64,000 nucleotides of DNA from an uncultured archaeon. GTDB taxonomy: Archaea > Thermoproteota > EX4484-205 > JAAOZP01. This document shows, in pieces, positions 8,062-41,441 of the stretch (the first letter of the stretch is position 1; each line of letters starts with the position of its first letter). The notes below the pieces were generated by a model. The model worked only from the letters and a program-made list of their open reading frames with translations. It did not search any database and was not told the DNA's origin. A program made the translations under genes and the position numbers. The stretch is from contig CALIBN010000007.1 of the NCBI GenBank assembly GCA_938045545.1, positions 88,421-152,420 of the forward strand, read 5' to 3'.

Positions 8062-8162
8062 GTTGCTGTATATTGTCGTCGGTTAACGGCTCAGCCTCTG
8101 CTTTACGCATTTCTAAGCAAAAGGCTTAAAAGATTATCGTGGATTTTTGAAACGATGTCTTC

Positions 8163-8741: not shown

Positions 8742-8756
8742 GGAGTAAAAAGGCGG

Positions 8757-10828: not shown

Positions 10829-12641
10829 AATGAAGGGTGGCTACACGGGCAGGGTTCTAAGCTTCGACCTCTCCTTAGAAAAGGCTAAAGTTGGGGACTT
10901 GAACGAGAAGGAGGCTTTCCTACTGCTCGGTGGAAAGGGTCTTGGAGCCCTTCTCCTCTACAGGAGTCTGCGAGGTAAAGAGGATCCTCTCTCCCCTGAA
11001 AACCCTCTCATAGTTTCAACAGGGCCCTTGACAGGGACGATTGCTCCAACAGGCACTAAGTTCAGTGTTCTAACTAAAAGCCCACAGACAGGTGTTTTCC
11101 TCGATTCAAACTGCGGAGGAATGTTTGGAGTGCAGCTTAAGAGAGCCGGCTACGATATGCTTATTGTCAAAGGGGCTGCTGAAGAACCCTCCATGCTAAT
11201 AGTTGATGAAAACGGTGCTGAGCTTAGGCCCTGCAGGCTATGGGGCGTGACGACGTTTGAAACAATCGCGGAGCTTAAGAAGGAGTTTCCCAACCGCGGC
11301 ATCCTAGTAATCGGGCCCGCGGGTGAAAGGCTTGCTCCAATATCCGGATTGTTGACGGACGACGCGAGGTCTGCAGGCCGTGGCGGCTCTGGTGCAGTAA
11401 TGGGCTCTAAAAGGCTTAAAGCAATAGTAGCGGGAGGCAGGAGACCAATAGAGGTTTATGATGCTGAGGGGATGAAGAGGGCTGCCTGGGTGGTCAGGAG
11501 GATGCTCAGGCTGCATGAGGTTACTGCGAGAAGCCTTCCGAGACACGGGACGGTGAACATAATAGAGGCTGTCAACGAGATGGGGGCTCTCCCAACGAGA
11601 AACTTTCAAAAAGGCAGGTTCGACGGCGCGGGCGAGCTTTCAGGGGAGAAATGGAGGTCCGGTCTTTGGAGGAGGGATAAGGGTTGCTACGGCTGCACTA
11701 TAAGGTGCGGGAAAATCGCTGTTTTAAACGGCTCATGGGTCGACGGGCCGGACTACGAGACCATCTGGGCGTTCGGTCCAAACTGCGGTATCAAAGATAC
11801 TAAAACAATAGCTATGGCTAACTATCTTTGCGACGACTACGGCTTAGACACGATAAGCACCGGCGTCACGATAAGCTTCCTAATGGAGCTCTACGAGAAA
11901 GGCTTCATCCAAGACTTGGACGGGTTGAAGCCCATGTGGGGGGACGAGGATGTCTTTCTCAAGCTTGTGGAGAAAGCGTGTAAGGGCGAGGGGTGTGGAA
12001 GAATGATTGAGCAGGGTGTAGCCAGGGTGAGCGGAAAGTTCCCGGGCAGCGAGGCCTTCGCAATGCACGTGAAAGGATTGGAAATGCCTGCTTACGAGCC
12101 GAGGGCCGCTAAAGGAATGGGTCTTGGCTACGCGACCAGCGACCGGGGGGCGTGCCATCTTAGAGGATACACTGCTGGGCAGGAGCTGCTTGGGTACGGT
12201 GGGGGCGTAGACCCGTACACTATTGAGGGCAAGGCTAGGCTAGTGATAGATAGGCAGGACGAGAAGGCTGTGATAGACTCTTCAGGCCTATGCTTCTTCG
12301 CGTTTTACGCAATAACTCTTAAAGAGCTGCACCGCATGATTGTTGCCTGCACCGGGCTCCCCTATAAAGACTGGTATGAATTAATGAGGATAGGGGAGAG
12401 AATCTACAACTTGACGAGGCTTTTCAACATTAGGGAGGGGTTAACCAGGAAGGATGACACTCTGCCCAGCAGATTCTTAAAGGAACCCATGCCCGAGGGA
12501 CCTGGAAAAGGACAGGTGGTTGAGCTTGAACAGATGCTTTCCGAATACTATAGGCTCAGGGGTTGGAACGAGAAAGGTGAGCCTAAAAAGGAAACTCTTG
12601 ATAGTCTAGGGTTAAACGAGCTTCTTAAGACGAACGAATAG
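10821..12641 (+). CDS. aor: Aldehyde:ferredoxin oxidoreductase (second AOR-family paralog)
   Basis: KSPQTG, IGPAGE, RGGSGAVMGSKRLKA, CYGCTIRC, GPDYET, GLDTISTG, YATSDRGACHL; overlaps the stop of the aldolase-ferredoxin gene. Confidence 0.95.
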   Translation: MLKMKGGYTGRVLSFDLSLEKAKVGDLNEKEAFLLLGGKGLGALLLYRSLRGKEDPLSPENPLIVSTGPLTGTIAPTGTKFSVLTKSPQTGVFLDSNCGGMFGVQLKRAGYDMLIVKGAAEEPSMLIVDENGAELRPCRLWGVTTFETIAELKKEFPNRGILVIGPAGERLAPISGLLTDDARSAGRGGSGAVMGSKRLKAIVAGGRRPIEVYDAEGMKRAAWVVRRMLRLHEVTARSLPRHGTVNIIEAVNEMGALPTRNFQKGRFDGAGELSGEKWRSGLWRRDKGCYGCTIRCGKIAVLNGSWVDGPDYETIWAFGPNCGIKDTKTIAMANYLCDDYGLDTISTGVTISFLMELYEKGFIQDLDGLKPMWGDEDVFLKLVEKACKGEGCGRMIEQGVARVSGKFPGSEAFAMHVKGLEMPAYEPRAAKGMGLGYATSDRGACHLRGYTAGQELLGYGGGVDPYTIEGKARLVIDRQDEKAVIDSSGLCFFAFYAITLKELHRMIVACTGLPYKDWYELMRIGERIYNLTRLFNIREGLTRKDDTLPSRFLKEPMPEGPGKGQVVELEQMLSEYYRLRGWNEKGEPKKETLDSLGLNELLKTNE

Positions 12642-12949
12642 TGTACTGGAAACTTTTTCCATTATTTTTTAATCGCTTTTCAATGATGCTTTAATACACT
12701 TGTAGGATTATATTGAAAACGGTTGGGTCTCAGCTAGATTCACGTCATTCCCCAGATTAAGCCATATGTTTGGTGAATGCAATAGGCCTCTGCCGTCAAG
12801 CGTATACTCCTATGATATCCATCATCATAGACAAATCTGAAAGAGCCCGCAATGAATTCTAGTGTAATGATCCTTGAGAAGGTTATTGATGCAAAAACGA
12901 CAACTGAGATTGTTTATGAGCCATGGGGCATGAAATGTATAAGTACAAT

Positions 12950-13288
12950 CTATAAATCTAAGATCGAGCGGGTAATAAAAAGGAGAAGTTAATGTTGGCG
13001 AAGTCATAGAGTTAGCTCTTTCTGGATGCACAGTTAATGGAAAGCCAAGGATGGTTATAAAAGAAGACCCTCTGTCAAAAGTTGGGGAGCAACTCATATT
13101 ATTTTCTGAAGCGTGTCAAAGAACTTGAAGGAAGGTTTAGAATTCTGGGTCCATGGAGAAGGTTCATTGTAATTTCTAACAAGGTATATTCTTTGGGTGC
13201 CCTTTACCCGGATTCAAAAGAAAGCTCATTGAATGTAAACGGAGTAGACTTGGAAAAATTCTTAAAAGAAGTACAAGAAAACATGTAA
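12950..13288 (+). pseudogene. Frameshifted C-terminal fragment of an uncharacterized protein
   Basis: IERVIKGEVNVGEVIELALSGCTVNGKPRMVIKEDPLSKVGEQLILF continues after a shift near 13100 as LKRVKELEGRFRILGPWRRFIVISNKVYSLG; no intact 5' part; AT-rich. Confidence 0.45.
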
Positions 13289-13299
13289 AACAATTCTCT

Positions 13300-14325
13300 T
13301 TAGCACGAAAACAGTTGCCCTGCATTGTTTCGAAACGTATTCCCAATGATGCGTGGATTGTTTTTTACTGCTTTAATCATCGTCTTAACATTCTCTACTG
13401 GAGTTTTCGGATGCAGGGCACAGGCTGGAGCCACTATTCTGATTCCGAGGTTTAGGCATGAGAGCGAGGCTTCAACAATGCTCTTCTCATCACCTTCCAG
13501 CAGTAGAAATGTACTTACTCCTCCTGCTAACGTTACGCCTCGGATCAAGTCTTTCGCAACCCTGAGGTTGGTTTTAGGGTCTACGTGGAAGACTTTAACA
13601 CCTGTCTCAGGTATGTCTTTCAAAATCTTTAAAGTGTCTCCGCATATGTGTAGTATACAGGGGACATTTAACATTGAGGTCAACCGTTTAAGAGGCTCTA
13701 CTTCGACAGTTCTGAAGATCATGGGGTTAAGCACGTCCGGTGATGAAGCCATGTCCTCAATCACGATAGCATCCGCCCCGGCGGAAACAATTTCCATGGC
13801 GTAATTCGCTATGGATGCTGAAAGCTGGTAAGTGTAATCCTTAATGAGATCCGGATCCCTTCTACTTAGCAACATGGTTTTAGCAGGGCCAAGCAGATAG
13901 TTGAGAAGGGTGAAAGGACCCGTGACGCCGCCGAGTATAGGAAAACCCGGTCCAACCGCTTCCCTAAGGTCTCCGATTACGTCTAAAACCATACTCGTCC
14001 TACCTCTCCCCATAAAGTTGAACTCTTTTATCTTCTCCAAGAGTGTCCTTGGTTTAGGGTAATGACCCTCGAAGTCTAGCTCAACGCCGAGGGCTTCGGC
14101 TTCAACACACTGGTCGAAAGGGACCCGTATCGTTTCAAAACCAATTACTTGCTTAGCTGCTAAGGCGGCTTTAACCATGTGTTCACGGCTCCTGTGGACT
14201 GATGGCCATGTTGAGCCGCATATATTGAGTAACTCTTCAGTTAAAGGGCTAGTTATTGCAGTTGCCATCGGTCTCACCATGTTTTCACCGCGCACTAGTG
14301 AGAGGAAGAGGCTTCTCCGATCCAA
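13300..14325 (-). CDS. mtaA: MtaA/CmuA-family methylcobalamin:thiol methyltransferase
   Basis: GFETIRVPFDQCVEAEALG, GGVTGPFTL, intact Zn motif LHICG...APAC. Confidence 0.8.
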   Translation of the reverse strand: MDRRSLFLSLVRGENMVRPMATAITSPLTEELLNICGSTWPSVHRSREHMVKAALAAKQVIGFETIRVPFDQCVEAEALGVELDFEGHYPKPRTLLEKIKEFNFMGRGRTSMVLDVIGDLREAVGPGFPILGGVTGPFTLLNYLLGPAKTMLLSRRDPDLIKDYTYQLSASIANYAMEIVSAGADAIVIEDMASSPDVLNPMIFRTVEVEPLKRLTSMLNVPCILHICGDTLKILKDIPETGVKVFHVDPKTNLRVAKDLIRGVTLAGGVSTFLLLEGDEKSIVEASLSCLNLGIRIVAPACALHPKTPVENVKTMIKAVKNNPRIIGNTFRNNAGQLFSC

Positions 14326-14556: not shown

Positions 14557-14615
14557 AGTCAATGTCGATAGAATTATATTTGCCACTCTAGCATTTGTTT
14601 AACAGGTGATGTTGC

Positions 14616-15040
14616 ATGAGTCCGGATGAAGACCTTTTTGAGACTCTGTCGCATCCCCTGCGGATTGAAATACTTAAGCTACTGGCCAAAGGTTCTATGC
14701 GTTTCGCTGAGATAAAAAGGAGCTCAGGATTAATAGTAGCGGCCTCCTAGATTTTCATTTAAAGAAGCTTGACAATCTGATAGGCGTAGATGGTGAAGGC
14801 CATTACGTCTTGAATGAGAAGGGGGTTGCAGCATTACAAGCGGTTGAAATTATATCTAAATATGGTTGGCAGAAAAGGGTGTTCTTCATAAACCTTTTAA
14901 TATATATTCTAATGAATTCATATGTCTTTTTAACAGACATAAAGTTAGCTTCAATAGTACTGGCTACAAGTACATTATGGATAGTATTCTACAGTTATTG
15001 GACATTCTTCAAAAGGCGTGTACATCTTAAAAACATATAA
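14616..15040 (+). pseudogene. ArsR-like winged-helix regulator with C-terminal TM segments; one base missing near 14714-14721
   Basis: MSPDEDLFETLSHPLRIEILKLLAKGSMRFAEIKR continues in another frame as LRINSSGLLDFHLKKLDNLI...YVLNEKGVAALQAV, followed by two hydrophobic helices. Confidence 0.75.
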
Positions 15041-15096: not shown

Positions 15097-15871
15097 ATGA
15101 CGTATTCACCCCCAGTTTTCGTTAAAGAGCTCGTGGTTAAATATGGTTCTTTCGTTGCTGTCGACGGTATTTCATTCACCGTTGAACCCGGGGAAATATA
15201 CGGACTTCTCGGTCCCAACGGGGCTGGTAAAACCAGCACTTTGAAAAGTGTTAACCGGGCTTTTAAAGCCTGCTTCCGGGAGAGTTGAAATATTCGGCAG
15301 GCCTCTTTCAGACGAGGTTGCTGTGAAAAGCATGATGGGCTATGTTCCGGAGGAGGTCATTCTGATGGATTCACTAACCCCAAGGGAATTCCTAGAATTC
15401 GTCGCCTCCATTAGGCGTCTAAACGCAGACACGGTTAACACGCGGCTTGAGAAACTGGTTTCAGCGTTTCAACTCAGAGAGTATTTCGACACACCTATCG
15501 CAGCCCTTTCCAAGGGGAATAAGCAGAAGGTCGCGGTAGTAGCGGCTCTGATGCACGAGCCAAAGCTCCTAATTCTAGACGAGCCCCTGATAGGGCTTGA
15601 CGCGTTCTCATCTAAAATACTCAAGGAACTGTTGACTTTCCACGCGAGCAAGGGTGGTGCAGTGATTTTTTCAACACACATCATGGAGGTTGCTGAAAGA
15701 CTCTGCACGAGAGTGGGTATAATAAACAGGGGGAGGATGGTTGGTGAGGGCACAGTCGATGGTCTTCGAAAACTGGTTAAGAGCGCGGAAGGCTCCTTAG
15801 AGGAAATATTCTTGAAGGTGACTGAGCAGGAGGCTGGAGTCCAGGAGATAGTTAAAGCATTGGAGGCGTAG
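15097..15871 (+). pseudogene. ABC transporter ATP-binding subunit split by one extra A at about 15244-15247
   Basis: Walker [10 protein letters not shown] in ORF 15097-15288; LSKGNKQK, LILDEP and STH in ORF 15248-15871. Confidence 0.85.
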
Positions 15872-15876
15872 GGTTA

Positions 15877-17535
15877 ATGAATACTTCTGAACTCTGACAG
15901 CTGTCGAAAAAGGTTTACAGGGAGATAGTTTTCCAATCGTTCTTCTCACTCCGCGTAGGCGGGACCCTGCCTCAAACGGGTGACGTTGAGAAAAACATTG
16001 CGAAACTAGTCAGTAGTGCCGAGGTTAACGCTACCTTCAGTAAGCTCATGATGGCTTTTTTCATAGGTGTAATAGGTGTTTTCACTTTCTTCTCAGGCGT
16101 TCTGCTTGAAATGGACAGGGAGCTTGCTGCCGCATGCGGTGTTTCATCAATGCTCAGCATAGTCCTCTTCATGATAGTTTTCATGGGGTTACAGGTTGCG
16201 ACATCCTTTGTCTCCTCCAGGGTTGCAGAGTTCCTCATCCCCCTACCAGTTTCAAGCGGGGATGTTTCAAAAATCCTCCTAATGTGCTTCATAAGGATCT
16301 TCGACATTCCATTAATAGCGGCGGTCTTTATACTCCCAATAGCATACGGGGTCTCATACGGCTCTATCTCGGGTGCTTTAACCGTCCTTCTTAGCGTCGT
16401 AACTACGGAGATATTCGCATTGACTATAGCTGTTTTCCTAGCCCTATCCTTCTACTCTAAAGTGGTTAAGGGAGGAGGAGGCTCAGCGTTGAGAACCCTC
16501 ATGAGGCTCTTCTACATGCTGGTCTGGATTATTCCGATGTTTCTCATGTACGCGGTCACGAGTTTCGCGATGCAGATGGTTAACCTGATGAAAACCCTTA
16601 CTCGGAGCCTCTCTCACCTGCTTACATTGCTATACCCTTTTTCACTCGGCTTCTTAGCTTCATTAGCTACCTTCTTTAAAATCGATGACCCTAGTATTGC
16701 TGCCCTATCAGTAGGCTCCTCGCTTCTCTACCTCGCCCTGGCAACATACTCTTTCAAATGGCTTGTCAAGAGGGTGGTTGGGATAGGCTTTGGAAGTGTT
16801 GCCGCAGGCAGTAGGGTGGAGGTTAAAGAAGTCTCCATAAATCCTGGGCCACCTTGGCTCGGGGTTCTTAAGAAGGATCTTAGGATCGCTTCAAGGTCTC
16901 CCTCCTACTTCAGCATACTTATAATGCCGGTTATACAGGTCATAATTTTCAGCTTCTCCTTCAGCTCCCTATATTCAGATGTGAGCGGCGCTCCAGCGGA
17001 GCTCCTATCTTCCATGCTTCTGCCCCTATTCATGTTCATGGTTTCTTTACTTATAATACTATTACTTCCTCCCATGCTTCTAAACACTGAGAGCATTGCT
17101 TATTCCTACGTTGGAAGCCTGCCTTTAAGAAGCAGGACGCTGATTCTTGCTAAGACAATCCTAACGTCAATCGTATACCTGCTTTCGCTCCTCGTATCGT
17201 TGACGATAACTATGTTAAGAGCACCAGGACTCATACGCATATTCGCGCTTTTCGGAGGTGTTTCCACCTTCTCCGCCGCTGCTTCAATAATGTTTGAAAC
17301 CCTTCTGATCTCAAGAATACTTGGGCAAACCGTCTCATCGGGAAACCTTTATTCAAAATTCCACTATTATATTCTCCCATTGATACTGGGCTTCATGGTT
17401 GCAATGGTTCCAACCCTAGTATACTTCATGACACTGCTTCTAACAGCTTCCTTTGTTCTAGGCATAATCTGTTTAACAGCTACCTCGATCCTGGAGTTTT
17501 TAATCGCAGTTCTGCTTCTAGTTAGAAAGGGATAG
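15877..17535 (+). pseudogene. ABC-2-type permease with in-frame TGA at codon 7 (the 16048-17535 ORF is its remainder)
   Basis: ATG 15877: MNTSEL*QLSKKVYREIVFQSFFSLR... is in frame with the multi-TM ORF; contains KKDLRIASRSP. Confidence 0.7.
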
Positions 17536-17537: not shown

Positions 17538-17551
17538 GAAAAACTTAAATA
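17538..17551 (+). promoter_or_regulatory. BRE/TATA promoter of the membrane triad operon
   Basis: GAAAAACTTAAATA; a GGTGA RBS precedes ATG 17586. Confidence 0.55.
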
Positions 17552-17573: not shown

Positions 17574-19670
17574 ATGGTGAAAGGCATGAGTGAGGAAAAA
17601 GAATTCCTCCTCGGCAAATTTTTGAAGTCTCGAGGATTCATAGTTGGCCTAGTAATCTCCATAGTGATGATGCTAATACAGCTTTCAATAGACTGGACCA
17701 ACGTTAATCTGACGCTGTGGGGTATGAATGCTGGCGCATTTCTAGTCCTATTTGTGCTGGCAATACTTGGCTACTTTCTCAGTTCCCTGAGGCTCAGGGC
17801 AGACGAATACGCTATCGTTTTCGCCATGGTGACGGTGAGCCTTGGCTTCGCCTGGTCTGTAGCCGTACCATTTTCAATATCGATTTTCAACACAGCTTGG
17901 GAAAAACAATGGTGGTACATGGGATACTGGGTGTCCACAATACCGGGAGCCCTGGAGATGAGCCCCCTTTTCGGAGTAAAGGACGCAGAGGCGGCTTTAG
18001 CTGCTTTCACCGGGGGAACCTCTGTTCCTTGGGCGGCTTGGGCGCCTGCGTTAGGCTACTGGATCGTCTTCACGATAGTCTTGGTAGTATTCATGATTTC
18101 AATGGGGATGATACTTCGGAAACTATGGATAGACATTGAGAAACTTCCGTTCCCATATTTGAACATTACTAATGAGCTTATCAATTTGGGTCTTGGCGTA
18201 ACCGAGAAGCCCCGCGTGAAAAAGATACTGATAGGCATACTCATAGGCTTTCTACTAATGCTCGGGAACCTAATAGATGCCTTGGCACCCGGGAGAGGAT
18301 GGAACCTGTGGCAGACCTACCACATTGAAGCCTTGGAGGTCGCATTGCCCAATTCAAGCTGGTTCTTCAGCGTTTCACCATCTCAGCTAAGCTTATGGTA
18401 TCTCGCACCGCTGGATGTTCTCTTCACCGCCGTAATCGCCTGGTTTATATTCGCAGACATTATTCCAGCCATATCAGCTTGGGCAGGATACGCGGCGCTG
18501 CAGGCACCTTGGGGAAGCTCCGGGGGAGCATGGCACAACATGGCTTCAGGCGCTATCGCACCTGTTTCCGGCGGTATGATCGGATGGGGCGCGATGATCG
18601 GCTTAGGCCTCTGGCTTCTCGTCTACGCAAGGAAATACATTGTTTCCACGCTTAAAAACGCGTTTGGCAAGAAGGTGCTGGACGAGTCTAACGAGCCGTT
18701 CTCGTACAGAACTCTCTGGCTGGCCTTCATAGTTTCAATCGTGCTGCTCATAGTGCTCATGGTCGCCGTCTACATTCCAGTCTGGGCAGCAGGTATAATC
18801 GTAGTATATACTTGTCTCCAGTATGTTGCGACATCCAGGATCCGTGGTGAAAGCATAGCGAAGGGTGACATTCCCTGGGAATCACAGGAGGTTTTGGCCA
18901 CGCTATTGTCTCAAGCAGGCCTCTACTCGCTCGTCGGACCCCAAGCATCGGCAGCGTCTCAAGCTGCATACGGGCCAGGTGCCTACACGGCTTGGAACAT
19001 GGGTTACGTGGTGACTGGGCACTACACGTGGTACTGGGGCGGCGCGGGCACGCCTCAGAGCGCTCAGCTTGAAGCCTTCAAATTGGCGACTTTAACCAAA
19101 ACACATAACAGGGCTATGGCTATTTCAACCATTGTGGCCATGGTCCTCGCTGTCCTCATATGTCTCCCGCTGTGGCTGGTCTTCACGTACATGATTGGGA
19201 TTGACAAGGGCTTCGGGCATGGCGGCACCCTCTACAGCCAGTGGGTCAGCCCAGCATGGTGGAGTCAAGAAGCCATTTTTAACGCTGCTTTTAACCAAGC
19301 TCAAGGCTGTTCCTGGTTTAACTGGAACAAGGACCTGCTGGGACTTGAGCTGGCGAACTGGGCTGCAGGCTTCTTCCTCGCCGGAGTTCTTCTCTGGGCT
19401 AGGGTTGCATTCGCCCGGTTTCCATTGAATCCGGTGGGTCTCATCATAGGCTTGTGCCAGCCTGCACACTGGCTTTGGGGCTACCTTCTTGTCGCATGGG
19501 TTTTGAAGTTTATAACGTTTAGAATAGGCGGCTCAAAGCTCTATGAAGAAAAAGGCGTGCCGCTGGCGATAGGGATATTCCTAGGCTCATTCATAGTATC
19601 CATAATTACCGACATATTCCTGCCGGTTGCACAAGCAGGAATAGAATGGGCTCCTGCTGTTCCAGGTTGA
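17574..19670 (+). CDS. DUF6785/DUF6784-type (OPT-like) polytopic membrane protein; likely start 17586
   Basis: Many TM helices; SVPWAAWAP, LRKLWIDIEKLPFP, SRIRGE, FPLNPVG, RIGGSKLYEEKGVPLAIGIFLG. Confidence 0.75.
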   Translation: MVKGMSEEKEFLLGKFLKSRGFIVGLVISIVMMLIQLSIDWTNVNLTLWGMNAGAFLVLFVLAILGYFLSSLRLRADEYAIVFAMVTVSLGFAWSVAVPFSISIFNTAWEKQWWYMGYWVSTIPGALEMSPLFGVKDAEAALAAFTGGTSVPWAAWAPALGYWIVFTIVLVVFMISMGMILRKLWIDIEKLPFPYLNITNELINLGLGVTEKPRVKKILIGILIGFLLMLGNLIDALAPGRGWNLWQTYHIEALEVALPNSSWFFSVSPSQLSLWYLAPLDVLFTAVIAWFIFADIIPAISAWAGYAALQAPWGSSGGAWHNMASGAIAPVSGGMIGWGAMIGLGLWLLVYARKYIVSTLKNAFGKKVLDESNEPFSYRTLWLAFIVSIVLLIVLMVAVYIPVWAAGIIVVYTCLQYVATSRIRGESIAKGDIPWESQEVLATLLSQAGLYSLVGPQASAASQAAYGPGAYTAWNMGYVVTGHYTWYWGGAGTPQSAQLEAFKLATLTKTHNRAMAISTIVAMVLAVLICLPLWLVFTYMIGIDKGFGHGGTLYSQWVSPAWWSQEAIFNAAFNQAQGCSWFNWNKDLLGLELANWAAGFFLAGVLLWARVAFARFPLNPVGLIIGLCQPAHWLWGYLLVAWVLKFITFRIGGSKLYEEKGVPLAIGIFLGSFIVSIITDIFLPVAQAGIEWAPAVPG

Positions 19671-19700
19671 TATTTCCCCCTTTTTTCTATACTTTTTTAA
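19671..19700 (+). terminator. Archaeal oligo-T terminator-like tract
   Basis: TATTTCCCCCTTTTTTCTATACTTTTTT immediately after the stop codon. Confidence 0.5.
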
Positions 19701-19729
19701 ACAGGATTAGGCATGAAGGTGAGTAGGGA

Positions 19730-22700
19730 ATGCCTCTGCAGAGAAAAATCCTGCTTCGAAGAATATTGAGAGTAAAGCTTAATCAGCTGCCGATTATCTT
19801 CTTCTTATGCTCAACGATCGTTTTTAACGCTGTTTATAAAGTGGAGGCAGACGGCCTGCAGGCCTTTAAAAATGGCGATATTTTAAACACCATTAACGTA
19901 GACGCTATTCGCGGGCACGTAAAGTATCTATCCGGCCTAGGATGCAGGACTCCCGGTCACCCGGGCTATGAAGCCGCTGCGAAGTACATCTATGAAAACT
20001 TCGTGAAAACTGGTCTTAAACCGGGTCCTTACGGTTACTTTGAAAACTTCACGGTTCTAGTCCCCGTGGTTCACGAGGCAAGGGTTCAAGTATTATCCCC
20101 GTTCCAGTTTACTCTTGACAATGTTTTAACAATGTACCCGATGGGTCTAAACCCGGGTGTGACTCCCCCGGAGGGTATTGAGGGGAGGCTGGTCTACGTT
20201 GGGAAAGCATCCCTGTCGGAGCTTGATGGAAAAAACCTTAATGACACGATAGTGCTTGTGGACTATGAAAACAGCGGGAATTGGATTCGCACGGTGATGT
20301 TTGGTGCTAAAGCAGTGCTGTTCGTTGAACCCGAAGCCTATAATAACGTTCAAAGTTCTTTAAACGCTAGGCTTCCGGATGCACCTCGATTAGCTTTCAG
20401 GGGAGGAGTCAACTACCTAGGCATCCCGCTAAATATTCCTAGGCTTGTGGTTTCAAGAAGGGATGCGGAGAATCTGATCGATCTTCAGGCAAGCGGTGAG
20501 GTTAAAGTAAGAATTAGGCTGAATGCTTCCTGGGAGGAAAAGCCAGCTTGGAATATTTTAGGCGTAATACCTGGAAGGAGAGAAGAGGTTGTGATTTTAA
20601 GCGCATACTATGATTCACAATCATACGTAGTTGGGATGGCTCCTGGAGCAGATGAGGCCATAGGCATTGCGACGATCATGGAGCTGGCTTCCTGCTTTAA
20701 GGATAATCCCCCGGAGAGAACCGTATGGTTTCTTGCTATAGGCTCTCACTACGGAGGGTTAAAGGGCTCTAGAGATTTTGTGGAACGGCACTTCGAGGAA
20801 ACGGGCAAGAAGATCAGCATGTGGATAAACTTCGATCTGGCTTCCGACGTGAGCGATCTAGGAGTGTTCTTCTGCGGGTACAACTATTATTTCGAAGCCT
20901 CCCTCTTAAGGTATACTTGGCTCCGTGATAGATTATTCGGGTCGCGGTCCGAGGTGAAGAATATCCTGCAGAACCTGGGCCTCGACATAAATGTTGAAGA
21001 CGGTTTACGCGTGAGGGAATGGAGAACATACTTGCCAACTAACCTTGCTTTCGACCATGAACCGTATGTTGTGGCGGGAGGAGTCGGCATAACAGTAGCT
21101 ACCGCAAATTCTTTCAGAACCTTCCGCTCCACGCCTTCTGACACCTATGAGAATAGTCTCGGCTCTCAGAGAAGGTTTGAAAACACTAGGAAACAGGTTA
21201 GGTTTATTGCAGCCTTAGCATCAAGCCTGATAAACGGTCCTGACTTCGGAAGCAAGGGCATTGGGCCAACGAGGTACGCTTTACAGCCAAATGCAGGCGG
21301 GTTCGTTACTTTAACTGGGAAAGTTGTTACATATGATTATGCGAAGGGATGGTTTAAGGAGGTGCCTCACGCACTGGTTTCAGTCCGCCTGTCTTATATG
21401 GAAGGAGGGTATTCTCCACATTTCTACTCTTTATGTAAAACGGATGAGAACGGCGTTTTTGTGGTTCACGGACTGCCTTCAGAGACAACCTATACGGGTG
21501 CGCAACAGCTGGGCGTGGGAGTTGCTGAGGTCGCGGTTCCAAAAGTTATTGTTGAGGCATTCGTCTTCAACGATAATGGAAGCATTATGTATGCCCCAGA
21601 GCTGTGGCAGCAAAGATCCGACGTATACCCTATTTCTTTCCAGGTTGACAGTGGGCGTATCGGGACCCCGGATGCACCCCGCTATTTTCCAGTCTTCCCA
21701 TGCGGCTCAATAGTCTTATTCAACCTTGTTCCGCCGGTAAACCTGCTCGGGAGCATCTCTATTCTAGATTCGCGTGGTCACACTCCACCTACTTCCTACG
21801 GCTATGTTCGCGACAGCTTCATTGAGGGCGAAGACATAACTATGATATTTGTCCCCGAAGACGTGCCTATTGAGGTTATAGCCTACAGCCCGGGAATACC
21901 TTTTCCCCAGGGAGTTTTGAAAAGTATTACTGAAGAGAATCGCGAGGGGCGAGGCTTCTCGGTTAAACAGGGTGAGACGTTAATCATCCTAGCCACTCCT
22001 TTAAGGCTTGTTAAGGATTTTCATCTTTTGAACAAGTATAGGCTTGACTTGGCGTCAAGCTACTTGGCTGCGAGCGCTCCCGCCTTAGAGTTCTCCAAAA
22101 ATACGGGTAGTCTGTTAAACGAGGCTTCAAGATGTTTCTCGGCTGAAGCCAGGTTTAATTATTCTCGCCTCGTTTACGCTACTTATGCTGCTTGGCAGAG
22201 CGAGATAAACGCTTACATGTTTACTAGGGGCCTAATTTTTGAAATAATTTCGTCAACCCTGTTCTTTTTCATACTTTTAGTTCCGTTTTCAATACTCTTT
22301 GTCGAACTCGTGTTCTCGCCGAGAAGCGGCCTGCAGAGAATATCATATGCGTGCGGGGCCTTCGCGCTTTTTACATTTCTGCTCTACTGGTTTCACCCTG
22401 GTTTCCACTTGGCGACAAACATCTATATAATGCTGGTTGGCATAGCGATCCTGGTTTTCGTCACCCCCGTCATAGGAATACTGTGGGGCAGAATATCAGG
22501 CTTTATCAAAGCGTTTAGAGAAGAGATAATCGGCAAACATTTCGCCGAGATAAGCCGGTTCGGTGCAGTTCTCATAGCTTTCTCAATGGGCATATCTAAC
22601 ATGAGGAAGAGAAGGCTGCGGACTACTCTTACGCTTGTAACAATCACGTTGATAGTGTTCTCCCTTATTTCGCTAACATCCATATACTTGATATCAATAG

Positions 22701-24292
22701 TCAGAACCATTCCGAAACCCGGGAAAACCTACTATGACGGAATACTAATAAGTGAATTCAGGTACCTGCCATCATATCTGGAGGGCCTTCTCAAAACGGA
22801 GATAGGAGACGAAGCAGTGATATGTCCAAGAAGCTGGATCTATACTTCCAGCGGCTACGTGTCAGTCTTGGGAGGGCAGGTTCCGGGGGCGAAGATAAAG
22901 GTTACTAAGATCACGGGTAACCTGTCTGAAACGCAATACGTCTTCTCCGCTTTGCTTGCAGTCGTGCCGGAGGACCCTATCTTCGAGCAGGGCATTACTC
23001 TTCCTGGTTCCTATGGGCTACTCGGTTCTTACACGACCATAATACCGAGGGAGGCTGCAGATGCCTGCGGCTGGAGAATAGGCGATATAATTTATGTTGG
23101 CGAAGCCAATCTGACTATCGTCGGAATATTCGACTCTTCCATTCTCAACAGCCTAGTGGATTTAAACCTGCACAAGGTGACGCCCATCAACTGGGGTGTC
23201 CAATGGGCAGGCGGCATTCAGCATATTCCCGCCCAATCCGTGCTTATAGTTCCGTACTCGCTTGCAGAAAGGTTAGGCTATCCTCCGATGCAGATAGTCG
23301 CTAAATTCCGTAATCAAAGCAGGGTTTTCGAATTTGCCCAAAGCCTGTCTAACAGGCTGCCGTTTGTCGTTTACGCTAGCGCCGGGGGCCAGAGGGCCAA
23401 TTTCCAGCAGCAAGCATGGTTCTCGCTCAGAGGAATAGAGCACCTTGTTTTCCCGATTGTCATTGCAGCTCTGGCAATCTTGGATGCGATGCTGGCCAAC
23501 GTGTATGAACGTGTTAGAGAGATCGGTATTTTTAGCTCACTGGGGCTCTCGCCCCTGCATGTTGCCGGTCTCTTTCTGTCGGAAGCGTTAGTATATTCTG
23601 TTGTTGCTGCAGTCCTAGGGTATGTTGTAGGACTTGTGGGAACTAATATCCTCTATATGTTTCAATTAATGCCGAAGGACTTTTACCCTAACTTCTCCTC
23701 AACGATCGTAATTTTAACAGTTTCAATATCGATATTAACAACGATAGCGTCCTCCGTCTATCCTGTTATGAAGGCTTCAAGGCTGGTCACGCCCTCGGTG
23801 GAAAGGGTTTGGAGGCTTAAAACCAAGCCTCAGGGCGACGTCTGGGACATACCGTTACCCTTCACCTCCTCGCCTGAGGAAACCGACGGAATCATAATGT
23901 TTTTAGTCGAGTTTTTCAAGGCTTTCACAACGGCTGAGGTGGGCGCCTTTAGAACGGACAATCTCACATTGTCTGAAAAGGTTGAAGAAGGGGCTGTTGA
24001 GAAGATCATAATCGTTGACACCACTCTGCCTCCTTTCGACATGGGGATCTCGCAGAGGGCTGAAATACTGATTCGTAAAGATGCTGGCGAAACCAATTTC
24101 AAATACGCTCTTCGTCTAAATAGAAAATCCGGTACGCTTTACATGTGGCAGAAAGCAGGATACAGGTTTGTAGACAGTCTCCGCAAACAACTACTCATTT
24201 GGAGGACCCTTCCCGCGGCAGACAAGCTGGAAGTGATTAAGAAAGCCTGCGAAATACGAGAGACATTTAAGGAGGCGAGGAACCATGAGTAG
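19730..24292 (+). CDS. Signal peptide + PA/M28-like ectodomain + beta-sandwich + MacB/FtsX-type permease fusion (1520 aa)
   Basis: RTPGHPGYEAAAKYI, GIEGRLVYVG (PA), NILGVIPG...SAYYDS...PGADE (M28 fold), KTDENGVFVVHGLP, TM block, RRLRTTLTLVTI, NVYERVREIGIFSSLGLSP (FtsX). Confidence 0.85.
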   Translation: MPLQRKILLRRILRVKLNQLPIIFFLCSTIVFNAVYKVEADGLQAFKNGDILNTINVDAIRGHVKYLSGLGCRTPGHPGYEAAAKYIYENFVKTGLKPGPYGYFENFTVLVPVVHEARVQVLSPFQFTLDNVLTMYPMGLNPGVTPPEGIEGRLVYVGKASLSELDGKNLNDTIVLVDYENSGNWIRTVMFGAKAVLFVEPEAYNNVQSSLNARLPDAPRLAFRGGVNYLGIPLNIPRLVVSRRDAENLIDLQASGEVKVRIRLNASWEEKPAWNILGVIPGRREEVVILSAYYDSQSYVVGMAPGADEAIGIATIMELASCFKDNPPERTVWFLAIGSHYGGLKGSRDFVERHFEETGKKISMWINFDLASDVSDLGVFFCGYNYYFEASLLRYTWLRDRLFGSRSEVKNILQNLGLDINVEDGLRVREWRTYLPTNLAFDHEPYVVAGGVGITVATANSFRTFRSTPSDTYENSLGSQRRFENTRKQVRFIAALASSLINGPDFGSKGIGPTRYALQPNAGGFVTLTGKVVTYDYAKGWFKEVPHALVSVRLSYMEGGYSPHFYSLCKTDENGVFVVHGLPSETTYTGAQQLGVGVAEVAVPKVIVEAFVFNDNGSIMYAPELWQQRSDVYPISFQVDSGRIGTPDAPRYFPVFPCGSIVLFNLVPPVNLLGSISILDSRGHTPPTSYGYVRDSFIEGEDITMIFVPEDVPIEVIAYSPGIPFPQGVLKSITEENREGRGFSVKQGETLIILATPLRLVKDFHLLNKYRLDLASSYLAASAPALEFSKNTGSLLNEASRCFSAEARFNYSRLVYATYAAWQSEINAYMFTRGLIFEIISSTLFFFILLVPFSILFVELVFSPRSGLQRISYACGAFALFTFLLYWFHPGFHLATNIYIMLVGIAILVFVTPVIGILWGRISGFIKAFREEIIGKHFAEISRFGAVLIAFSMGISNMRKRRLRTTLTLVTITLIVFSLISLTSIYLISIVRTIPKPGKTYYDGILISEFRYLPSYLEGLLKTEIGDEAVICPRSWIYTSSGYVSVLGGQVPGAKIKVTKITGNLSETQYVFSALLAVVPEDPIFEQGITLPGSYGLLGSYTTIIPREAADACGWRIGDIIYVGEANLTIVGIFDSSILNSLVDLNLHKVTPINWGVQWAGGIQHIPAQSVLIVPYSLAERLGYPPMQIVAKFRNQSRVFEFAQSLSNRLPFVVYASAGGQRANFQQQAWFSLRGIEHLVFPIVIAALAILDAMLANVYERVREIGIFSSLGLSPLHVAGLFLSEALVYSVVAAVLGYVVGLVGTNILYMFQLMPKDFYPNFSSTIVILTVSISILTTIASSVYPVMKASRLVTPSVERVWRLKTKPQGDVWDIPLPFTSSPEETDGIIMFLVEFFKAFTTAEVGAFRTDNLTLSEKVEEGAVEKIIIVDTTLPPFDMGISQRAEILIRKDAGETNFKYALRLNRKSGTLYMWQKAGYRFVDSLRKQLLIWRTLPAADKLEVIKKACEIRETFKEARNHE

Positions 24293-26162
24293 CGTTAAAG
24301 GCGTCTCAGGGTTAACCTGGAGGTCCTTCCTAGTGATACTCTATGGCATAGTGGTTCTTTTGCCGGCGGCAATATGGTACCAACTTTACAGCGGCGGTAA
24401 CCTTAGCTCTGGGATCCAGTATACGCTACTATTGTTTGCCGTTGAACTCGGGTTTCTGGCTGGACACCCGTTAAGCAGGCAAGAGGCATTCCTAATATGG
24501 ATGATGGGGCATCAAATCTGCTTTGAGGTTGTAAGCATCCAGTGGATATATGCAACCTGGTTTAGAACCAGCCCCTATGCCTATGGGTTGAACATACCGG
24601 ATTGGTGGGCTCCTGCTCCAGAGACAAACCTGTTTATCTACAGAACATTTTTCTCACCCAGCTTCATCACACCTATTTTCATATCTCTAGTAGGAGGGCT
24701 ACTTTGGAAACTTGCAGACATGTCTATGGCGTTCATTGCGAAAAGCATGTTCATCGAGGTCGAAGATTTGCCGTTTCCAACCGCTCAGGTCGGGGCTGAT
24801 GCAATTCTGACGCTTTCGGAGAGGACGGATCCTAGGAGAACCCGGATTTTTACACTGTCGGCGGCACTGGGCTTTGTCTACGGTCTTCTAGTCTATTTGC
24901 CGGCACTAGTGCTGGGTTATACGACGATTCCAATCCCATGGATAGACCTGACTAGCAGAATAGAGCCGTTTCTACCTGGAGCCTCGTTCGGCGTAGCGAC
25001 TGATATCATAAGCATCGTGACAGGGTTCATACTTCCGGTGAGAGTAGTCCTAACCCTGTTTGCAAGCGGAATGGCTTTCTACTTCTTCGGATGTTTCCTC
25101 ACCAGTTCCGAATCACCGTTGCCAGCCCTTAGGGGGCTGTTCAGCTATTGGTCTCCAGGCTCCTCTCTTTCAACAATATACCAGCATTCGCTTTTCGAGC
25201 TCTGGGTAAGCCCAATAATAGGCTTAGCCATAGCTGCGGGGGTCCTCCCAATATTAAGGAACCCTCAAATTTTCATTAACTCTCTGAAAAGTCTCTTGAG
25301 AATAAGGGTCGGCAAGGGTGTTGACAATTACCCATTATGGTTCCTTCTAGCACTGTTCTTCGGCTCAACCGTTGGGTCGGTTGCTCTTTTCACCTACCTG
25401 ATACCTGGTCTCCCAGTAACTTTTATACTGCTGCTTCTTGCTCTTTCCTCAGGATGGTCATTCATATACACTTTAGTGGGCACAAGATCCTATGGTATAG
25501 TTGGTTTTAAGCAGGATGTTCCATATCTTAAGGAGGGAGTATTCCTCGCATACATGGGTGCAACAGGCTTTAACGATACCAGAATATGGTTCGGCCCACT
25601 TATTATCACTACTTTCGGGGCTGATTTTTGCTACTTCATGAAGATCGGTCAACTTTGCAACACGCCTTCAAAGACCATGTATAAGACATACTTCCTGGTT
25701 TTCCCAATCGTCTGGCTGGTTGGCTTCATCTACGTGTCTGCCTTCTGGAACATCGCGCCAATGCCATCCAACGTTTACCCTGGTACGAATATTTACTGGC
25801 CTATTCAGGCTCGATGGCTCCGCCTGTTCGCTTCAGGGGGTGCGGCTGGCCTGCTCAACCCGCTTCTCGTAGCCGGCTTCTTCACGATTGGCCTAATTGT
25901 TTTCGCCGTCTCCGAGGCGACGCGCCTAGGCATTCCTGTCATAGCTTTGTCTGCAGGCACGGCGCAACCATTACCTTACTCTGTCTCCCTACTGATAGGG
26001 ATGATTATTGGAAAACTGGTTGAAAAAAGAATAGGACGAGACTTCTGGTCGCGCTACAGGAATGCGATAGTCGCCGGGATTTCCCTGGGGGTTGGCTTAA
26101 TTATAACGATTAGCGTGGCTATAGGGCTGATTTTGAAAAACATGTGGATACTTCCATACTAG
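24285..26162 (+). CDS. OPT-superfamily-like polytopic membrane protein
   Basis: GLTWRS, LSRQE, IPDWWAP, FIEVEDLPFPTAQVGA, PMPSNVYP, AIVAGISLG; overlaps the stop of the FtsX fusion. Confidence 0.75.
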   Translation: MSSVKGVSGLTWRSFLVILYGIVVLLPAAIWYQLYSGGNLSSGIQYTLLLFAVELGFLAGHPLSRQEAFLIWMMGHQICFEVVSIQWIYATWFRTSPYAYGLNIPDWWAPAPETNLFIYRTFFSPSFITPIFISLVGGLLWKLADMSMAFIAKSMFIEVEDLPFPTAQVGADAILTLSERTDPRRTRIFTLSAALGFVYGLLVYLPALVLGYTTIPIPWIDLTSRIEPFLPGASFGVATDIISIVTGFILPVRVVLTLFASGMAFYFFGCFLTSSESPLPALRGLFSYWSPGSSLSTIYQHSLFELWVSPIIGLAIAAGVLPILRNPQIFINSLKSLLRIRVGKGVDNYPLWFLLALFFGSTVGSVALFTYLIPGLPVTFILLLLALSSGWSFIYTLVGTRSYGIVGFKQDVPYLKEGVFLAYMGATGFNDTRIWFGPLIITTFGADFCYFMKIGQLCNTPSKTMYKTYFLVFPIVWLVGFIYVSAFWNIAPMPSNVYPGTNIYWPIQARWLRLFASGGAAGLLNPLLVAGFFTIGLIVFAVSEATRLGIPVIALSAGTAQPLPYSVSLLIGMIIGKLVEKRIGRDFWSRYRNAIVAGISLGVGLIITISVAIGLILKNMWILPY

Positions 26163-27438: not shown

Positions 27439-28633
27439 ATGAACCTCCAAAGTGGAAATATTGCGGGAAAAACTCGCATTAAACCATTACTCGTCATATT
27501 CGCCTACAACATACTGTTCATGGCTGCATCCGGGCTTTTAGTACCGGGTACTCCACTATATCTTTCTACGAACGGTTTTGACGGGGGCTCCGTCAACCTG
27601 CTACTGTCCTCCATAGCAGTATCAAGCCTCATAGGGCAGGTGGCATGGGGATACTTGTCTGACAAGGCTATGGACAGGTTGTTTTTCCTGAAGCTTGGAA
27701 CCGCGGGCTACGCGCTCGGATACTTGGCTATAGTTTTGCTAAAGAATAGGCTTGCCCTCGCAATTCTACTCGTTGCAACGAGCTTTGTAGGTTCAGCGTC
27801 ATACCCGGCTGCAATGGCGCTCCTGTCAGAAACCTCTTCTACCAAGAACCGTGGCAGGTCGATGGGCGTTTTTTTGGTCAGCCGCCTCCCTGGGTTGGGC
27901 CATTTCAGTCGCGTTCACAGGATTCGTAATAAACGAGTTGGGTGGAGGATACTTTTTCGGCCTCTGTTCACTCCTCTATTCTGCTTCACTCGCCCTCGTC
28001 CACCTGTTTTTAAGGATTGAAGACAGGCATGCTTCAGACGATAAGAGGAGTAGAGGGGTTTCTTTGAGCTCCCTCTTCAGACTGGGAACACCTTTTCTAG
28101 CGTTTCTCTCCGGAAGCATTATCTTCTTCATGGCTGATTTCGCGAAAAATGTGTACGTGCTGATGTTCTACGCTTTTGAGCTGGGGCTTGGCATGGTAAC
28201 AGCCACGCTGCTTCTGAGCCTCACCAGCTGGCTTGAGATACCGGTCAACGTGATCTTCGGATACCTCTCGGATATGCTTGGTCGAAAAACCGTAGTGCTG
28301 GTTGCATACGTGCTGTGCAGCGCCTACATGTTCATCAATTCCATGGTCAGCGGTTTTGAGGGGGCTCTGCTTACCATGGCTTTCTACGGCTTTGTCTGGG
28401 GTGCTTTTTCAGGAGCGAGTTCAGCATTTGCCTCTGAACTTGTCAATGAAGATAAAAAGGGTGTTGCTCTAGGCCTTTTCAACTCTTCTTGGAACATAGC
28501 GAGTATGCTCGCCCTAGTGTCGATCGGAATGCTTAGCCAAGCCTACGGGTATCGGTTAATGTTCAACACCATGGGCGTCTTAATGCTCCTAGCGTGCCTC
28601 ATCATCATCTTCGGGATACGGGGCAGAGCTTAA
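27439..28633 (+). pseudogene. MFS transporter split by one extra T in the T7 run at 27869-27875
   Basis: GYLSDK and RGRSMGVF in the first ORF; WSAASLG, GYLSDMLGRK and KGVALGLFN in the second. Removing one T restores a roughly 12-TM MFS protein. Could be a sequencing error. Confidence 0.8.
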
Positions 28634-31658: not shown

Positions 31659-33089
31659 ATGAGTGAAAAGGAGTATCTTTACCAGGAGCGGTTAAAACGC
31701 TACTTGACTGCTATGCGTAACGAGAAACCTGATTGCATTCCAATTCGACCTTTTGTAGCTGAGTTTACTGCAAAGTACGCTGGCTACACTTGTCAAGAGG
31801 TGACGCATGACTACAGGAAGGCTTTTGACGCTGTTTTGAAGTGTGCTAGGGATTTCGACTGGGATGCGATGGTCCCCAACATGGTATATGTTTGGACAGG
31901 CCTTACTCAGGCCCTTGGCCTGAAATACTACGCTATACCAGGTATCCACATCCCTCCTGACACGGCATTCCAGTATCTTGAGCCGCCTGAGCAGAAAGCG
32001 TTCATGAAGCCTGAAGAATATAACATGCTGATAGATGATCCGACAGCGTTTCTTTACACCGTCTGGTTGCCCCGCGTCTCCAGCGAGATTTCTAGAGACG
32101 GGTTTCAATCCCCGTATCGAACCATGCTTGCTCTCGTGAAAGGGGCTATGGCGATGAGCGATTATTTTAACGCTTTTGGGCCTCAGGTTGAGAGAATGAG
32201 GAGGGAGGCTGGGACTGTTTCCGCCATAGCGGGCATTCTCAAGGCCCCGCTTGACATTATCGCCGACAAGCTCCGCGGATATGTTGGTTTAGCTAAGGAT
32301 CTTCATAGGCAGCCTGAGAAAGTGCTTGAAGCATGTGAAGCCCTCGCCCCGCATTTGACTCAGGTTGCTCGGATGACTGCCGACCCGGAGAAAAAGGTTC
32401 CAATAGGCTTCTGGATGCATCGCAGCGCGGTGCCGTTCATCAGTATGAACCATTTTTCGAATATTCACTGGCGCACGCTGAAACCAATTATTGAGGAGCT
32501 CTGGTCCCATAGGCTGAGAGTGCTTTTCTACGCGGAGGGGGACTGGACCCCGCATCTAGACAGTTTCGCCGAATTGCCTGAGGGCAGCATAGTCTTCCAT
32601 ATTGACAGGAGCGATGTTTTCGAGGCCCATAGGAAGCTGGGTCGCAAGTTCTGTCTAAGCGGGGGGCTGCCTAACTGGCTGCTGAACCTTGGAACACCAG
32701 ACGAGGTGCGCCGCTACTGTAAGAAAATCATCGACAGTATTGCCTCGGACGGAGGGTATATCATGGATGCGTCAGCCATAATTCAGAACGATGCTAAGGT
32801 CGAAAATGTGAAGGCGATGACTGATTTCACCCGCAGCTACGGGAAGTATGGGGAGAGAGGTTTTGAAGGTTTAAAGAATCGCCGTCAGGATTTGGGGGAA
32901 GCTGGCGAGTGCAAGCCGGCAACAGGCCTTAAGAATCTAAAAGTTAAACCGGGATCCTGCGTTCCGTGGGATGAGAAGCGCAAGGAGATCGAAAGGGTTT
33001 CTGGAGACGAGGACCTATTAAAAAGAGTCTGGGAGGAAATCGACTCACTCGGATACCTGTTCATCTGGCAAGTGTTGTTGTCCTTCTAA
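31659..33089 (+). CDS. URO-D superfamily protein with C-terminal extension
   Basis: AMRNEKPDCIP, APLDIIADKLRG, FYAEGDW, CLSGGLP, GTPDEVRRYCKKII, DGGYIMD. Confidence 0.82.
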   Translation: MSEKEYLYQERLKRYLTAMRNEKPDCIPIRPFVAEFTAKYAGYTCQEVTHDYRKAFDAVLKCARDFDWDAMVPNMVYVWTGLTQALGLKYYAIPGIHIPPDTAFQYLEPPEQKAFMKPEEYNMLIDDPTAFLYTVWLPRVSSEISRDGFQSPYRTMLALVKGAMAMSDYFNAFGPQVERMRREAGTVSAIAGILKAPLDIIADKLRGYVGLAKDLHRQPEKVLEACEALAPHLTQVARMTADPEKKVPIGFWMHRSAVPFISMNHFSNIHWRTLKPIIEELWSHRLRVLFYAEGDWTPHLDSFAELPEGSIVFHIDRSDVFEAHRKLGRKFCLSGGLPNWLLNLGTPDEVRRYCKKIIDSIASDGGYIMDASAIIQNDAKVENVKAMTDFTRSYGKYGERGFEGLKNRRQDLGEAGECKPATGLKNLKVKPGSCVPWDEKRKEIERVSGDEDLLKRVWEEIDSLGYLFIWQVLLSF

Positions 33090-38442: not shown

Positions 38443-38451
38443 GCATAGCTG

Positions 38452-41379: not shown

Positions 41380-41441
41380 GAGGCCCCTCAGTTGCAGGAT
41401 TTATATAAATCTTTTGAGAGTAGCCCATGCTAGCTGCTTTA

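Follow-up and report, generated by a model that had tools for sequence, protein, structure and literature searches.

We examined a three-gene unit, here called genes A, B, and C or the triad, in a 64,000-nucleotide (nt) stretch of DNA (the window; contig CALIBN010000007.1, positions 88,421 to 152,420) from an uncultured archaeon of the Thermoproteota, whose genome assembly spans 2.03 Mb in 51 contigs and is 92% complete. Gene A (17574..19670, 698 amino acids [aa]) encodes a polytopic membrane protein with DUF6785 and DUF6784 that is a distant member of the OPT superfamily, gene B (19730..24292, 1520 aa) a putative receptor-permease, and gene C (24285..26162, 625 aa) an OPT-like polytopic membrane protein; all three are on the plus strand. 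Our leading interpretation, to which we give slightly less than an even chance, is that the genome encodes three paralogous head modules of a widespread type VII ABC (MacB/LolCDE-like) system, this triad being one of them, with oligomer uptake as part of that interpretation. An earlier note made from the sequence alone (the original prediction) had described three genes of these lengths, the last two overlapping. The open reading frames (ORFs) confirmed this, with a gap of 59 nt between A and B and an overlap of 8 nt between the end of B and the start of C. Its domain calls (OPT-like, pseudo-peptidase/FtsX fusion, and OPT-like) agreed with the results of Pfam, hhalign, and Foldseek.

The protein encoded by gene B begins with an N-terminal membrane anchor and a large ectodomain, continues with three extra transmembrane (TM) helices and one MacB/FtsX module, and ends in a cytoplasmic domain. 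Pfam matched Peptidase_M28 at residues 275-475 (7.4e-15, 55.6 bits against a cut-off of 21.3) and FtsX at residues 1241-1351 (1.6e-13, 51.2 bits against a cut-off of 25.5). NCBIfam gave only partial matches to MacB and ADOP permeases, phmmer matched MacB, YtrF, and LolF chains, and the B paralogue of triad T3 had a MacB_PCD match in Pfam. The ectodomain includes a PA-like insert and an M28 peptidase-like domain (20162..21154, residues ~145-475) from which the canonical catalytic and metal residues have been lost. We took these residues to be the H-x-D, bridging D, and E-E that make up the metal ligands and catalytic Glu of M28 peptidases. Alignment with the PA-domain aminopeptidase 2ek8, over a stretch that leaves out the last two metal ligands, showed that HHDS was replaced by YYDS and FGAEENG by IGSHYGG, so that the Glu-Glu pair became Ser-His. 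The bridging Asp of the GAxDD motif was not kept in the B family consensus. Because of the loss of HHDS, the exchange of the Glu-Glu pair, and the unconserved bridging Asp, the sequence justifies calling this domain a pseudo-peptidase and not an active M28 peptidase. Residues Y294, D295, H340, and E444 of the altered M28 pocket are conserved. One relative of B (P0053) had a precomputed Pfam match to Nicastrin. An Atlas search with residues 476-830 was uninformative (best score 0.82).

The three extra TM helices (22241..22489, residues ~838-920; H2-36, H42-63, and H73-109 in the model) precede a MacB/LolC-type module (22616..23782, residues ~963-1351) made up of TM1, an extracytoplasmic core domain, and TM2-4, with an ERxREIG motif after TM2. 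Residues E1260, R1261, E1264, G1272, L1273, and P1275 in this post-TM2 region were invariant in the B family. An AlphaFold model of residues 826-1520 (pLDDT 77.7, pTM 0.55) placed the parts in the order of three TM helices, a cytoplasmic helix, the MacB-type module, and a C-terminal alpha/beta domain, and the best Foldseek matches of this model in the PDB were LolC, LolE, MacB, HrtB, and BceB (prob 1.0, E 1e-9 to 7e-7). Both its sequence and its fold place B in the MacB/FtsX permease superfamily. It carries one FtsX module only; solved type VII permeases work with two. An internal duplication of FtsX within B was rejected, as the three extra helices showed no detectable likeness to FtsX: hhalign gave them a probability of 0.2% against the FtsX TM helices of B, and of 0.9% against the family of small FtsX proteins described below. 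The cytoplasmic alpha/beta domain (23786..24268, residues ~1353-1513) is specific to the B family. Its profile detected the three B paralogues of the source genome (1e-46 to 1e-55), weakly a protein on contig C38 (6e-4), and nothing further in that genome. It had 15 invariant residues across 8 diverse relatives, and Foldseek returned weak START/Bet v 1 and PsbP-like matches (E 0.03-0.1).

Gene A matched DUF6785 (5e-37, 127.9 bits) and DUF6784 (2e-14, 53.8 bits), both above the cut-off, and a crude hydropathy scan of its product counted 11 or more hydrophobic segments. Gene C aligned with the Pfam OPT model from end to end (10-610 against model positions 2-619 of 623, E 6e-6), with a score of 25.6 bits that fell 0.2 bit below the cut-off of 25.8. 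When the A family (30 sequences) was compared with the C family (51 sequences) by hhalign, the two were homologous with a probability of 99.5% (E 2.9e-23 over 566 columns). Among 61 proteins of these kinds (33 C-type and 28 A-type), OPT was matched by 20 at E<=1e-3 (best 1.1e-15), DUF6785 by 26, and DUF6784 by 20; the tally names no members, and the OPT matches are presumed to be C-type. The Atlas look-alike cluster of A carried DUF6784/DUF6785, with OPT also on 11% of its members. Searches of PDB sequences with A and with C returned nothing at E<=10. Because of the profile alignment between A and C, the OPT matches, and the Atlas cluster, we assign both at the level of sequence to the OPT superfamily of membrane proteins, C as a borderline and A as a remote member.

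Genes of the A, B, and C types each numbered exactly three in the source genome, and together they formed three triads. The other two (T2 and T3) were found at C7:63504-72073, in the same order as in the window, and on contig C29, rearranged. The paralogues were 22-30% identical and colinear along their full length. Among relatives of B, 62 clusters had the same M28 and FtsX architecture at E<=3e-72, and their sources, where named, were Thermoproteota, Bathyarchaeia, Armatimonadota, or Desulfobacterales. We scanned public genomes, one per species, for B, and the locus counts that follow rest on the best 80 loci of 584 confirmed stretches. These loci included one at 91% identity from a Brockarchaeota metagenome-assembled genome (a hint at the lineage of the window), Bathyarchaeia, many Armatimonadota (among them Chthonomonas calidirosea), Latescibacterota, Gemmatimonadota, Zixibacteria, and Omnitrophota. 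Of 64 loci with at least 2.5 kb of downstream flank, 40 had C immediately 3' of B and 48 had it anywhere in that flank. A lay immediately 5' of B in 17 of 60 loci with at least 2.5 kb upstream, and anywhere in that flank in 27. When at least 2.5 kb was available on both sides, an A- or C-type gene was present in 51 of 53 loci and both were present in 14. All 7 archaeal loci with both flanks had A and C together. Armatimonadota-like loci had C without A (both in 1 of 27), and Latescibacterota loci had A in 14 of 15 and C in 7 of 15, some having A only. The system had been predicted for an archaeal membrane and with a heterodimer of OPT-like proteins; it is not specific to archaea, given the relatives in the five bacterial phyla listed above, and a heterodimer is not required, given the loci in which A or C stands alone.

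We also selected 20 further archaeal loci from 11 genomes by hand from strong B matches, a non-random sample. All three genes were present in 18 of them, in the orders ABC, BAC, and ACB and in divergent forms. The suggested count of paralogous triads thus gave three in the source genome, and co-occurrence of the genes elsewhere was borne out by the counts from both sets of loci. Co-inheritance was assessed in 20 complete modules, after L099 (A more than 3 kb from B) and the incomplete L113 and L118 were dropped. Nearest-module agreement was 12/20 for B and C, 14/20 for B and A, and 10/20 for A and C, with about 1 expected by chance. These values are inflated by kinship, yet agreement was also seen between paralogues of a single genome. 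At the level of sequence comparison, the modules appear to be passed on as units. The alternative that an orphan FtsX-domain surface protein merely neighbors two independent secondary transporters could account for the variation in gene order among loci. However, the linkage survives rearrangement, two domains of life, and divergence to 22-30% identity, the genes stand at 3:3:3 in the genome, and they co-diversify; we regard this alternative as highly improbable. In four Latescibacterota loci without C (L074, L075, L077, and L079), two or three tandem genes of one family, each encoding ~800 aa, lay between A and B, ~2-9 kb upstream of B.

An associated ATPase was sought near the triads and elsewhere. 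The original prediction stated that the unit has no ATPase. This was true of the three genes themselves but not of their surroundings or of the genome, since a frameshifted ABC ATPase gene lies upstream and a LolD-type ATPase gene with a small FtsX gene lies unlinked on contig C11. None of the three triads of the source genome had a LolD-type ATPase gene in the surrounding 10 kb. The upstream ABC ATPase and 12TM_1 permease pair (15097-17535) was rejected as the motor, being absent from T2 and T3 and having closest relatives of another ATPase type. ABC ATPases were within 20 kb of 8 of the 20 archaeal modules, about as expected from genome density (38 ORFs in 2 Mb).

The suggestion to look for a co-occurring ATPase of the LolD/MacB type was answered by Armatimonadota-like loci. 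There, the operon order on one strand was B, C, a protein of ~320 aa, a PqqD-like protein, a small FtsX of 211 aa with almost no ectodomain, and a LolD-type ATPase. Of 34 such loci with at least 7 kb of sequence downstream, 28 had the small FtsX and 28 had the ATPase, 27 encoded the ~320-aa protein, and 21 encoded the PqqD-like protein; the complete set of four was present in 21. The PqqD-like count is an undercount, as ORFs below 150 aa were not called. In Chthonomonas calidirosea, locus L039 contains B, C, and all four of these partners. All four partners had homologues in the source genome that were unlinked to the triads. The small FtsX was encoded at C11:21808-22443 (E 3.7e-58) and adjoined an ATPase gene (C11:22459-23184) of the LolD/MacB/FtsE type, the product of which was 62-66% identical to the ATPases of the bacterial operons. 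The ~320-aa protein was encoded at C12:99969-100877 (2e-30), with a PqqD-like gene (1e-21) adjoining. A model of the ~320-aa protein (pLDDT 88.8) showed two PsbP/Mog1-like domains; the protein had no match in Pfam or NCBIfam, and its family comprised 1,928 representatives at E<=1e-3, 1,226 at 1e-10, and 361 at 1e-30 out of 1.84 billion cluster representatives. Kinship between this PsbP-fold protein and the tail of B was unsupported (hhalign probability 0.5%), despite the weak PsbP-like Foldseek matches of both. An orphan LolD-type ATPase gene (C18:13154-13879, minus strand), a paralogue of the C11 ATPase gene, adjoined an RLI/ABCE1 gene and had no permease alongside.

The distribution of these motor genes was compared with that of B in 251 genomes of the phylum, as read from tables. 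The small FtsX was present in 57 and the ~320-aa protein in 44, each always as a single copy, while copies of B, counted with its C-terminal 290 aa as the query, reached at least 9 per genome. Taking genomes with a B match at E<1e-30 as B-positive (n = 51), we found the small FtsX in 46 of 51 compared to 11 of the 200 others, and the ~320-aa protein in 39 of 51. The ~320-aa protein was missing from 12 B-positive genomes, 9 of which belonged to families f30 and f31; in f31, the profile did find this protein beside B, in locus L113. Family tallies coincided for the small FtsX and the ~320-aa protein (8/8 in f12 and 3/3 in f26 for both), and neither was found in f5 (35 genomes), f11 (22), f14 (19), or f18 (12). 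Each of 5 complete bacterial genomes with B had exactly one strong small FtsX (1e-72 to 1e-81, with the next match at 1e-24) and one gene for the ~320-aa protein; both genes were away from the B locus examined and adjoined each other in two of the genomes. In locus L113 (genome G098, 7034-13700), B adjoins the PsbP-fold gene and is near an ABC ATPase gene, with no A or C within 20 kb, which is a different wiring of the same parts.

The post-TM2 motif that is invariant in B was also present in the small FtsX, and we take it to lie at the ATPase-coupling helix of the solved relatives MacB and LolCDE. Taken together, the operons, the genomic positions, and the phyletic patterns make it probable that an ABC motor encoded in trans belongs to the system. 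These results also bear on the possibility of a hybrid importer that runs independently of an ATPase, in which the cytoplasmic tail of B would stand in place of a nucleotide-binding domain and the OPT-like pair would be ion-coupled. The lack of a LolD-type ATPase within 10 kb of the own triads is in keeping with such an importer, as is the conserved, family-specific tail, a possible dock for a partner. Nevertheless, 28 of 34 Armatimonadota-like loci have the LolD-type ATPase and the small FtsX in an operon with B and C, single-copy homologues of the motor genes are present in the source genome with matching phyletic patterns, and the motif after TM2 is kept at what is presumably the ATPase-coupling site. 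We therefore consider an ATPase-independent importer improbable.

The single FtsX module in B, the one set of motor genes per genome, and the many heads led us to a model in which B is paired with the small FtsX. A predicted complex of B residues 940-1520 with the small FtsX weakly supported this pairing, with a score of 0.41 compared to 0.00 for the best control. Agreement between runs covered at least 77% of the contacts, and the partner had a pLDDT of 66 or more. Of 80 solved complexes, 58 passed the mark used for such predictions, as did 2 of 110 mismatched pairs; among those that scored no higher than 0.60, only 7 of the 80 solved complexes passed, together with both mismatches. The pass of this pair may reflect likeness to solved FtsX dimers. 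Three large proteins of 990-1071 aa in the source genome (C7:4398-7493, C29:41492-44707, and C42:26067-29039) each have one FtsX module and a tail of ~150 aa, with no LolD-type ATPase beside them and no A or C gene nearby. They may be further heads of the same motor.

In the mechanism that we propose, B would serve as the receptor-permease, with an inactive PA/M28 ectodomain scaffold, one FtsX module, and a cytoplasmic tail, and each module would also supply one or two OPT-superfamily proteins (A, C) associated with B. B would pair with the single-copy small FtsX from C11, as LolC does with LolE, and the pair would be driven by the C11 LolD-type ATPase, with the PsbP-fold and PqqD-like proteins from C12 as putative cytoplasmic accessories. 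ATP-driven motion of the FtsX pair would be passed to the ectodomain of B, which would bind a module-specific oligomer (an oligosaccharide, glycopeptide, or peptide). The bound oligomer could then be handed to the adjacent OPT-like protein or proteins, cross the membrane, and be degraded by cytoplasmic hydrolases. We favor uptake because there are many diverged heads per genome, the partners are of the OPT type, and cytoplasmic glycosidases are encoded nearby. At its broadest, this would be a hybrid uptake machine in which one type VII motor with its accessories is common to up to 9 or more interchangeable heads per genome, each mechanically loading its own OPT-type channel with a specific glycan, glycopeptide, or peptide, as a cytoplasmic-membrane counterpart of SusC/D in archaea and several bacterial phyla; we consider this full form possible but doubtful.

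The same assembly could instead have an outward or envelope role. Molecules of the envelope, or embedded in the membrane, would then be extracted, expelled, or presented by it, or it would control extracytoplasmic partners through mechanotransmission, and the OPT-like proteins would be scaffolds or substrate feeders. The nearest folds (LolC/LolE, MacB, HrtB, and BceB) are those of extractors and exporters, and YbbAP-TesA is presented as another extractor in the portion of the literature covered here. One Latescibacterota locus has a gene for an HlyD-like adaptor 5' of the module, and the PqqD-like partner recalls clusters for peptide maturation and export, an association that we presume. However, many diverged heads with one motor per genome fit substrate-specific acquisition better than envelope housekeeping, and the glycosidases encoded nearby are cytoplasmic. 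The OPT superfamily is moreover known for uptake, according to the part of PMC3061005 considered here. On balance, an outward role seems rather unlikely.

Several observations weigh against uptake by heads that share a motor. No confident interface supports any of the contacts that we propose, including the putative one between B and A or C. B could form a homodimer. Eleven genomes had the small FtsX without a B match at the strict threshold, and 5 B-positive genomes lacked the small FtsX at the threshold used, two of them being only 70% complete; related genomes are not independent, and the raw counts overstate the phyletic match. With regard to the substrate, the 97 genes flanking the 20 archaeal modules showed no dominant family. 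Among the top 25 of 124 families there, the glycoside hydrolase (GH) families were GH57 (twice), GH42, GH10, and GH130, these being raw counts. The neighbors in Latescibacterota were mixed (epimerase, amidohydrolase, FGE-sulfatase, and HlyD-like). The GH2 observation given below was made post hoc, and peptides would suit the themes of M28, OPT, and PqqD no less than glycans do. To our knowledge, the characterized type VII ABC systems all export, extract, or transmit force, and none imports.

The gene surroundings of the own triads nevertheless offer hints of a substrate. Near the triad in the window are two GH38 genes, a GH2 gene, and a PIG-L gene, and none of the products had an N-terminal hydrophobic segment in a crude hydropathy scan, in line with the predicted lack of signal peptides in nearby glycosidases. 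T2 has a mannosidase-like GH2 gene and a weak match to GH43 nearby, and T3 is near CBM4_9, GH42-like, and GH3 genes. Thus, all own triads were within 10 kb of genes for GH or carbohydrate-binding module (CBM) proteins, and all 3 matches to PF00703 (GH2) in the source genome were in or within 10 kb of B-family genes, one of them inside the C38 protein described below, which is suggestive. The expected co-localization with carbohydrate-active enzymes held for the own triads but was weak across the 20 other archaeal loci and in Latescibacterota. The stretch at 33101-51545 encodes a cytoplasmic GH2 protein, two GH38 alpha-mannosidases, a PIG-L-family deacetylase, and a GNAT protein, a set that presumably resembles the breakdown of mannose/GlcNAc glycans, as judged by archaeal chitobiose pathways. 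A distant B-like protein of 1654 aa is encoded at C38:38213-43177 (L119:1213-6177, minus strand) and contains a GH2 sandwich (residues 94-195), MacB_PCD, and FtsX.

Expression signals were read from the window itself. A TATA-box-like element, CTTAAATA (17544..17551, plus strand), is 26 nt 5' of the ATG of gene A, in agreement with the single promoter predicted ahead of the unit. On general knowledge of archaeal promoters, it is a candidate promoter for a leaderless transcript of the triad. T-rich tracts are found 3' of gene A and of gene C, and together with the TATA-like element they are consistent with an A-B-C unit under its own archaeal promoter. Directly upstream on the same strand are the ABC ATPase gene (15097-15871), 1.7 kb from the triad, and the 12TM_1 permease gene (16048-17535). 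A frameshift near 15245-15290 separates the Walker A motif of the ATPase from the remainder; the orthologue in a close relative (L018) is unbroken and encodes 262 aa, and the break is either an assembly error or a pseudogene. Genes for a helix-turn-helix regulator with a membrane tail (14610-14750 / 14711-15040) and for an MFS transporter (27439-28020 / 27851-28633) also look split by frameshifts, and three broken genes in a span of 14 kb may reflect indel errors of the assembly. The prediction that no classical solute-binding protein accompanies the triad held for the 20 flanking ORFs, which had no Pfam match to one. URO-D-family genes are present on both sides of the region (13300-14325, minus strand, and 31659-33089, plus strand).

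The original prediction knew of no characterized system with this architecture, and our literature search, which covered titles and the beginnings of abstracts, likewise returned no description of one. Within that scope, no report was found on DUF6785/DUF6784 (PF20581/PF20580), on M28-FtsX fusions, or on linkage between FtsX and OPT. Nothing on this system appeared in the corresponding titles and abstract openings on Brockarchaeota transporters, type VII ABC systems, OPT in Bathyarchaeota, or FtsX in Armatimonadota and Latescibacterota. The parts have known folds; their combination, modular genetics, and breadth are new. If our interpretation is correct, type VII ABC systems could be modular, with one motor for many heads, and could work with proteins resembling secondary transporters, neither of which is known today. 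It would also give a first functional handle on DUF6785/DUF6784, the prokaryotic OPT-like proteins, and the unnamed PsbP-fold family, and would hint at oligomer uptake in Brockarchaeota-like archaea, Bathyarchaeia, Armatimonadota, and Latescibacterota, which are little-studied degraders. Chthonomonas calidirosea is a cultured carrier, which makes the idea testable.

In comparison with LolCDE, MacB, FtsEX, and YbbAP-TesA, the C-terminal half of B has the same four-TM FtsX module with an extracytoplasmic core domain. The associated ATPase is of the type found in LolCDE, MacB, and FtsEX, and a heterodimer of B with the small FtsX would parallel LolC/LolE. Unlike those systems, B bears an additional ~800 residues of PA/M28-like ectodomain, three more TM helices, and a tail in the cytoplasm; the FtsX that is its putative partner has hardly any ectodomain; and the motor genes occur in single copy, whereas the heads occur in multiple copies that are usually unlinked to them. 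No type VII system tied to OPT-like proteins was found among the titles and abstract openings searched. The PA/M28 scaffold of B, with its catalytic residues replaced, is presumably comparable to those of the transferrin receptor and nicastrin, which we take to be non-catalytic receptors of the PA and M28 fold; we know of no fusion of either to an FtsX permease. With the OPT/YSL family (PF03169, TC 2.A.67), A and C share a polytopic organization of 620-700 aa, the end-to-end alignment of C, the homology of A to C, and the matches of 20 of the 61 A/C-type proteins; they differ in that the C of the window is 0.2 bit under the Pfam cut-off and A is filed under DUF6785/DUF6784. Known OPT proteins are stand-alone, ion-coupled importers that are not encoded with an FtsX protein. 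Prokaryotic OPT homologues were described as biochemically uncharacterized as of 2011 in the portion of PMC3061005 considered. The likeness to SusC/SusD of the polysaccharide utilization loci of Bacteroidota is one of logic only, in that many diverged receptor/transporter modules are present per genome and some are beside glycoside hydrolases. In contrast to SusC/SusD, the present system has neither a TonB-dependent barrel nor a SusD fold, its setting is the cytoplasmic membrane, and its energy source would be shared and supplied in trans.

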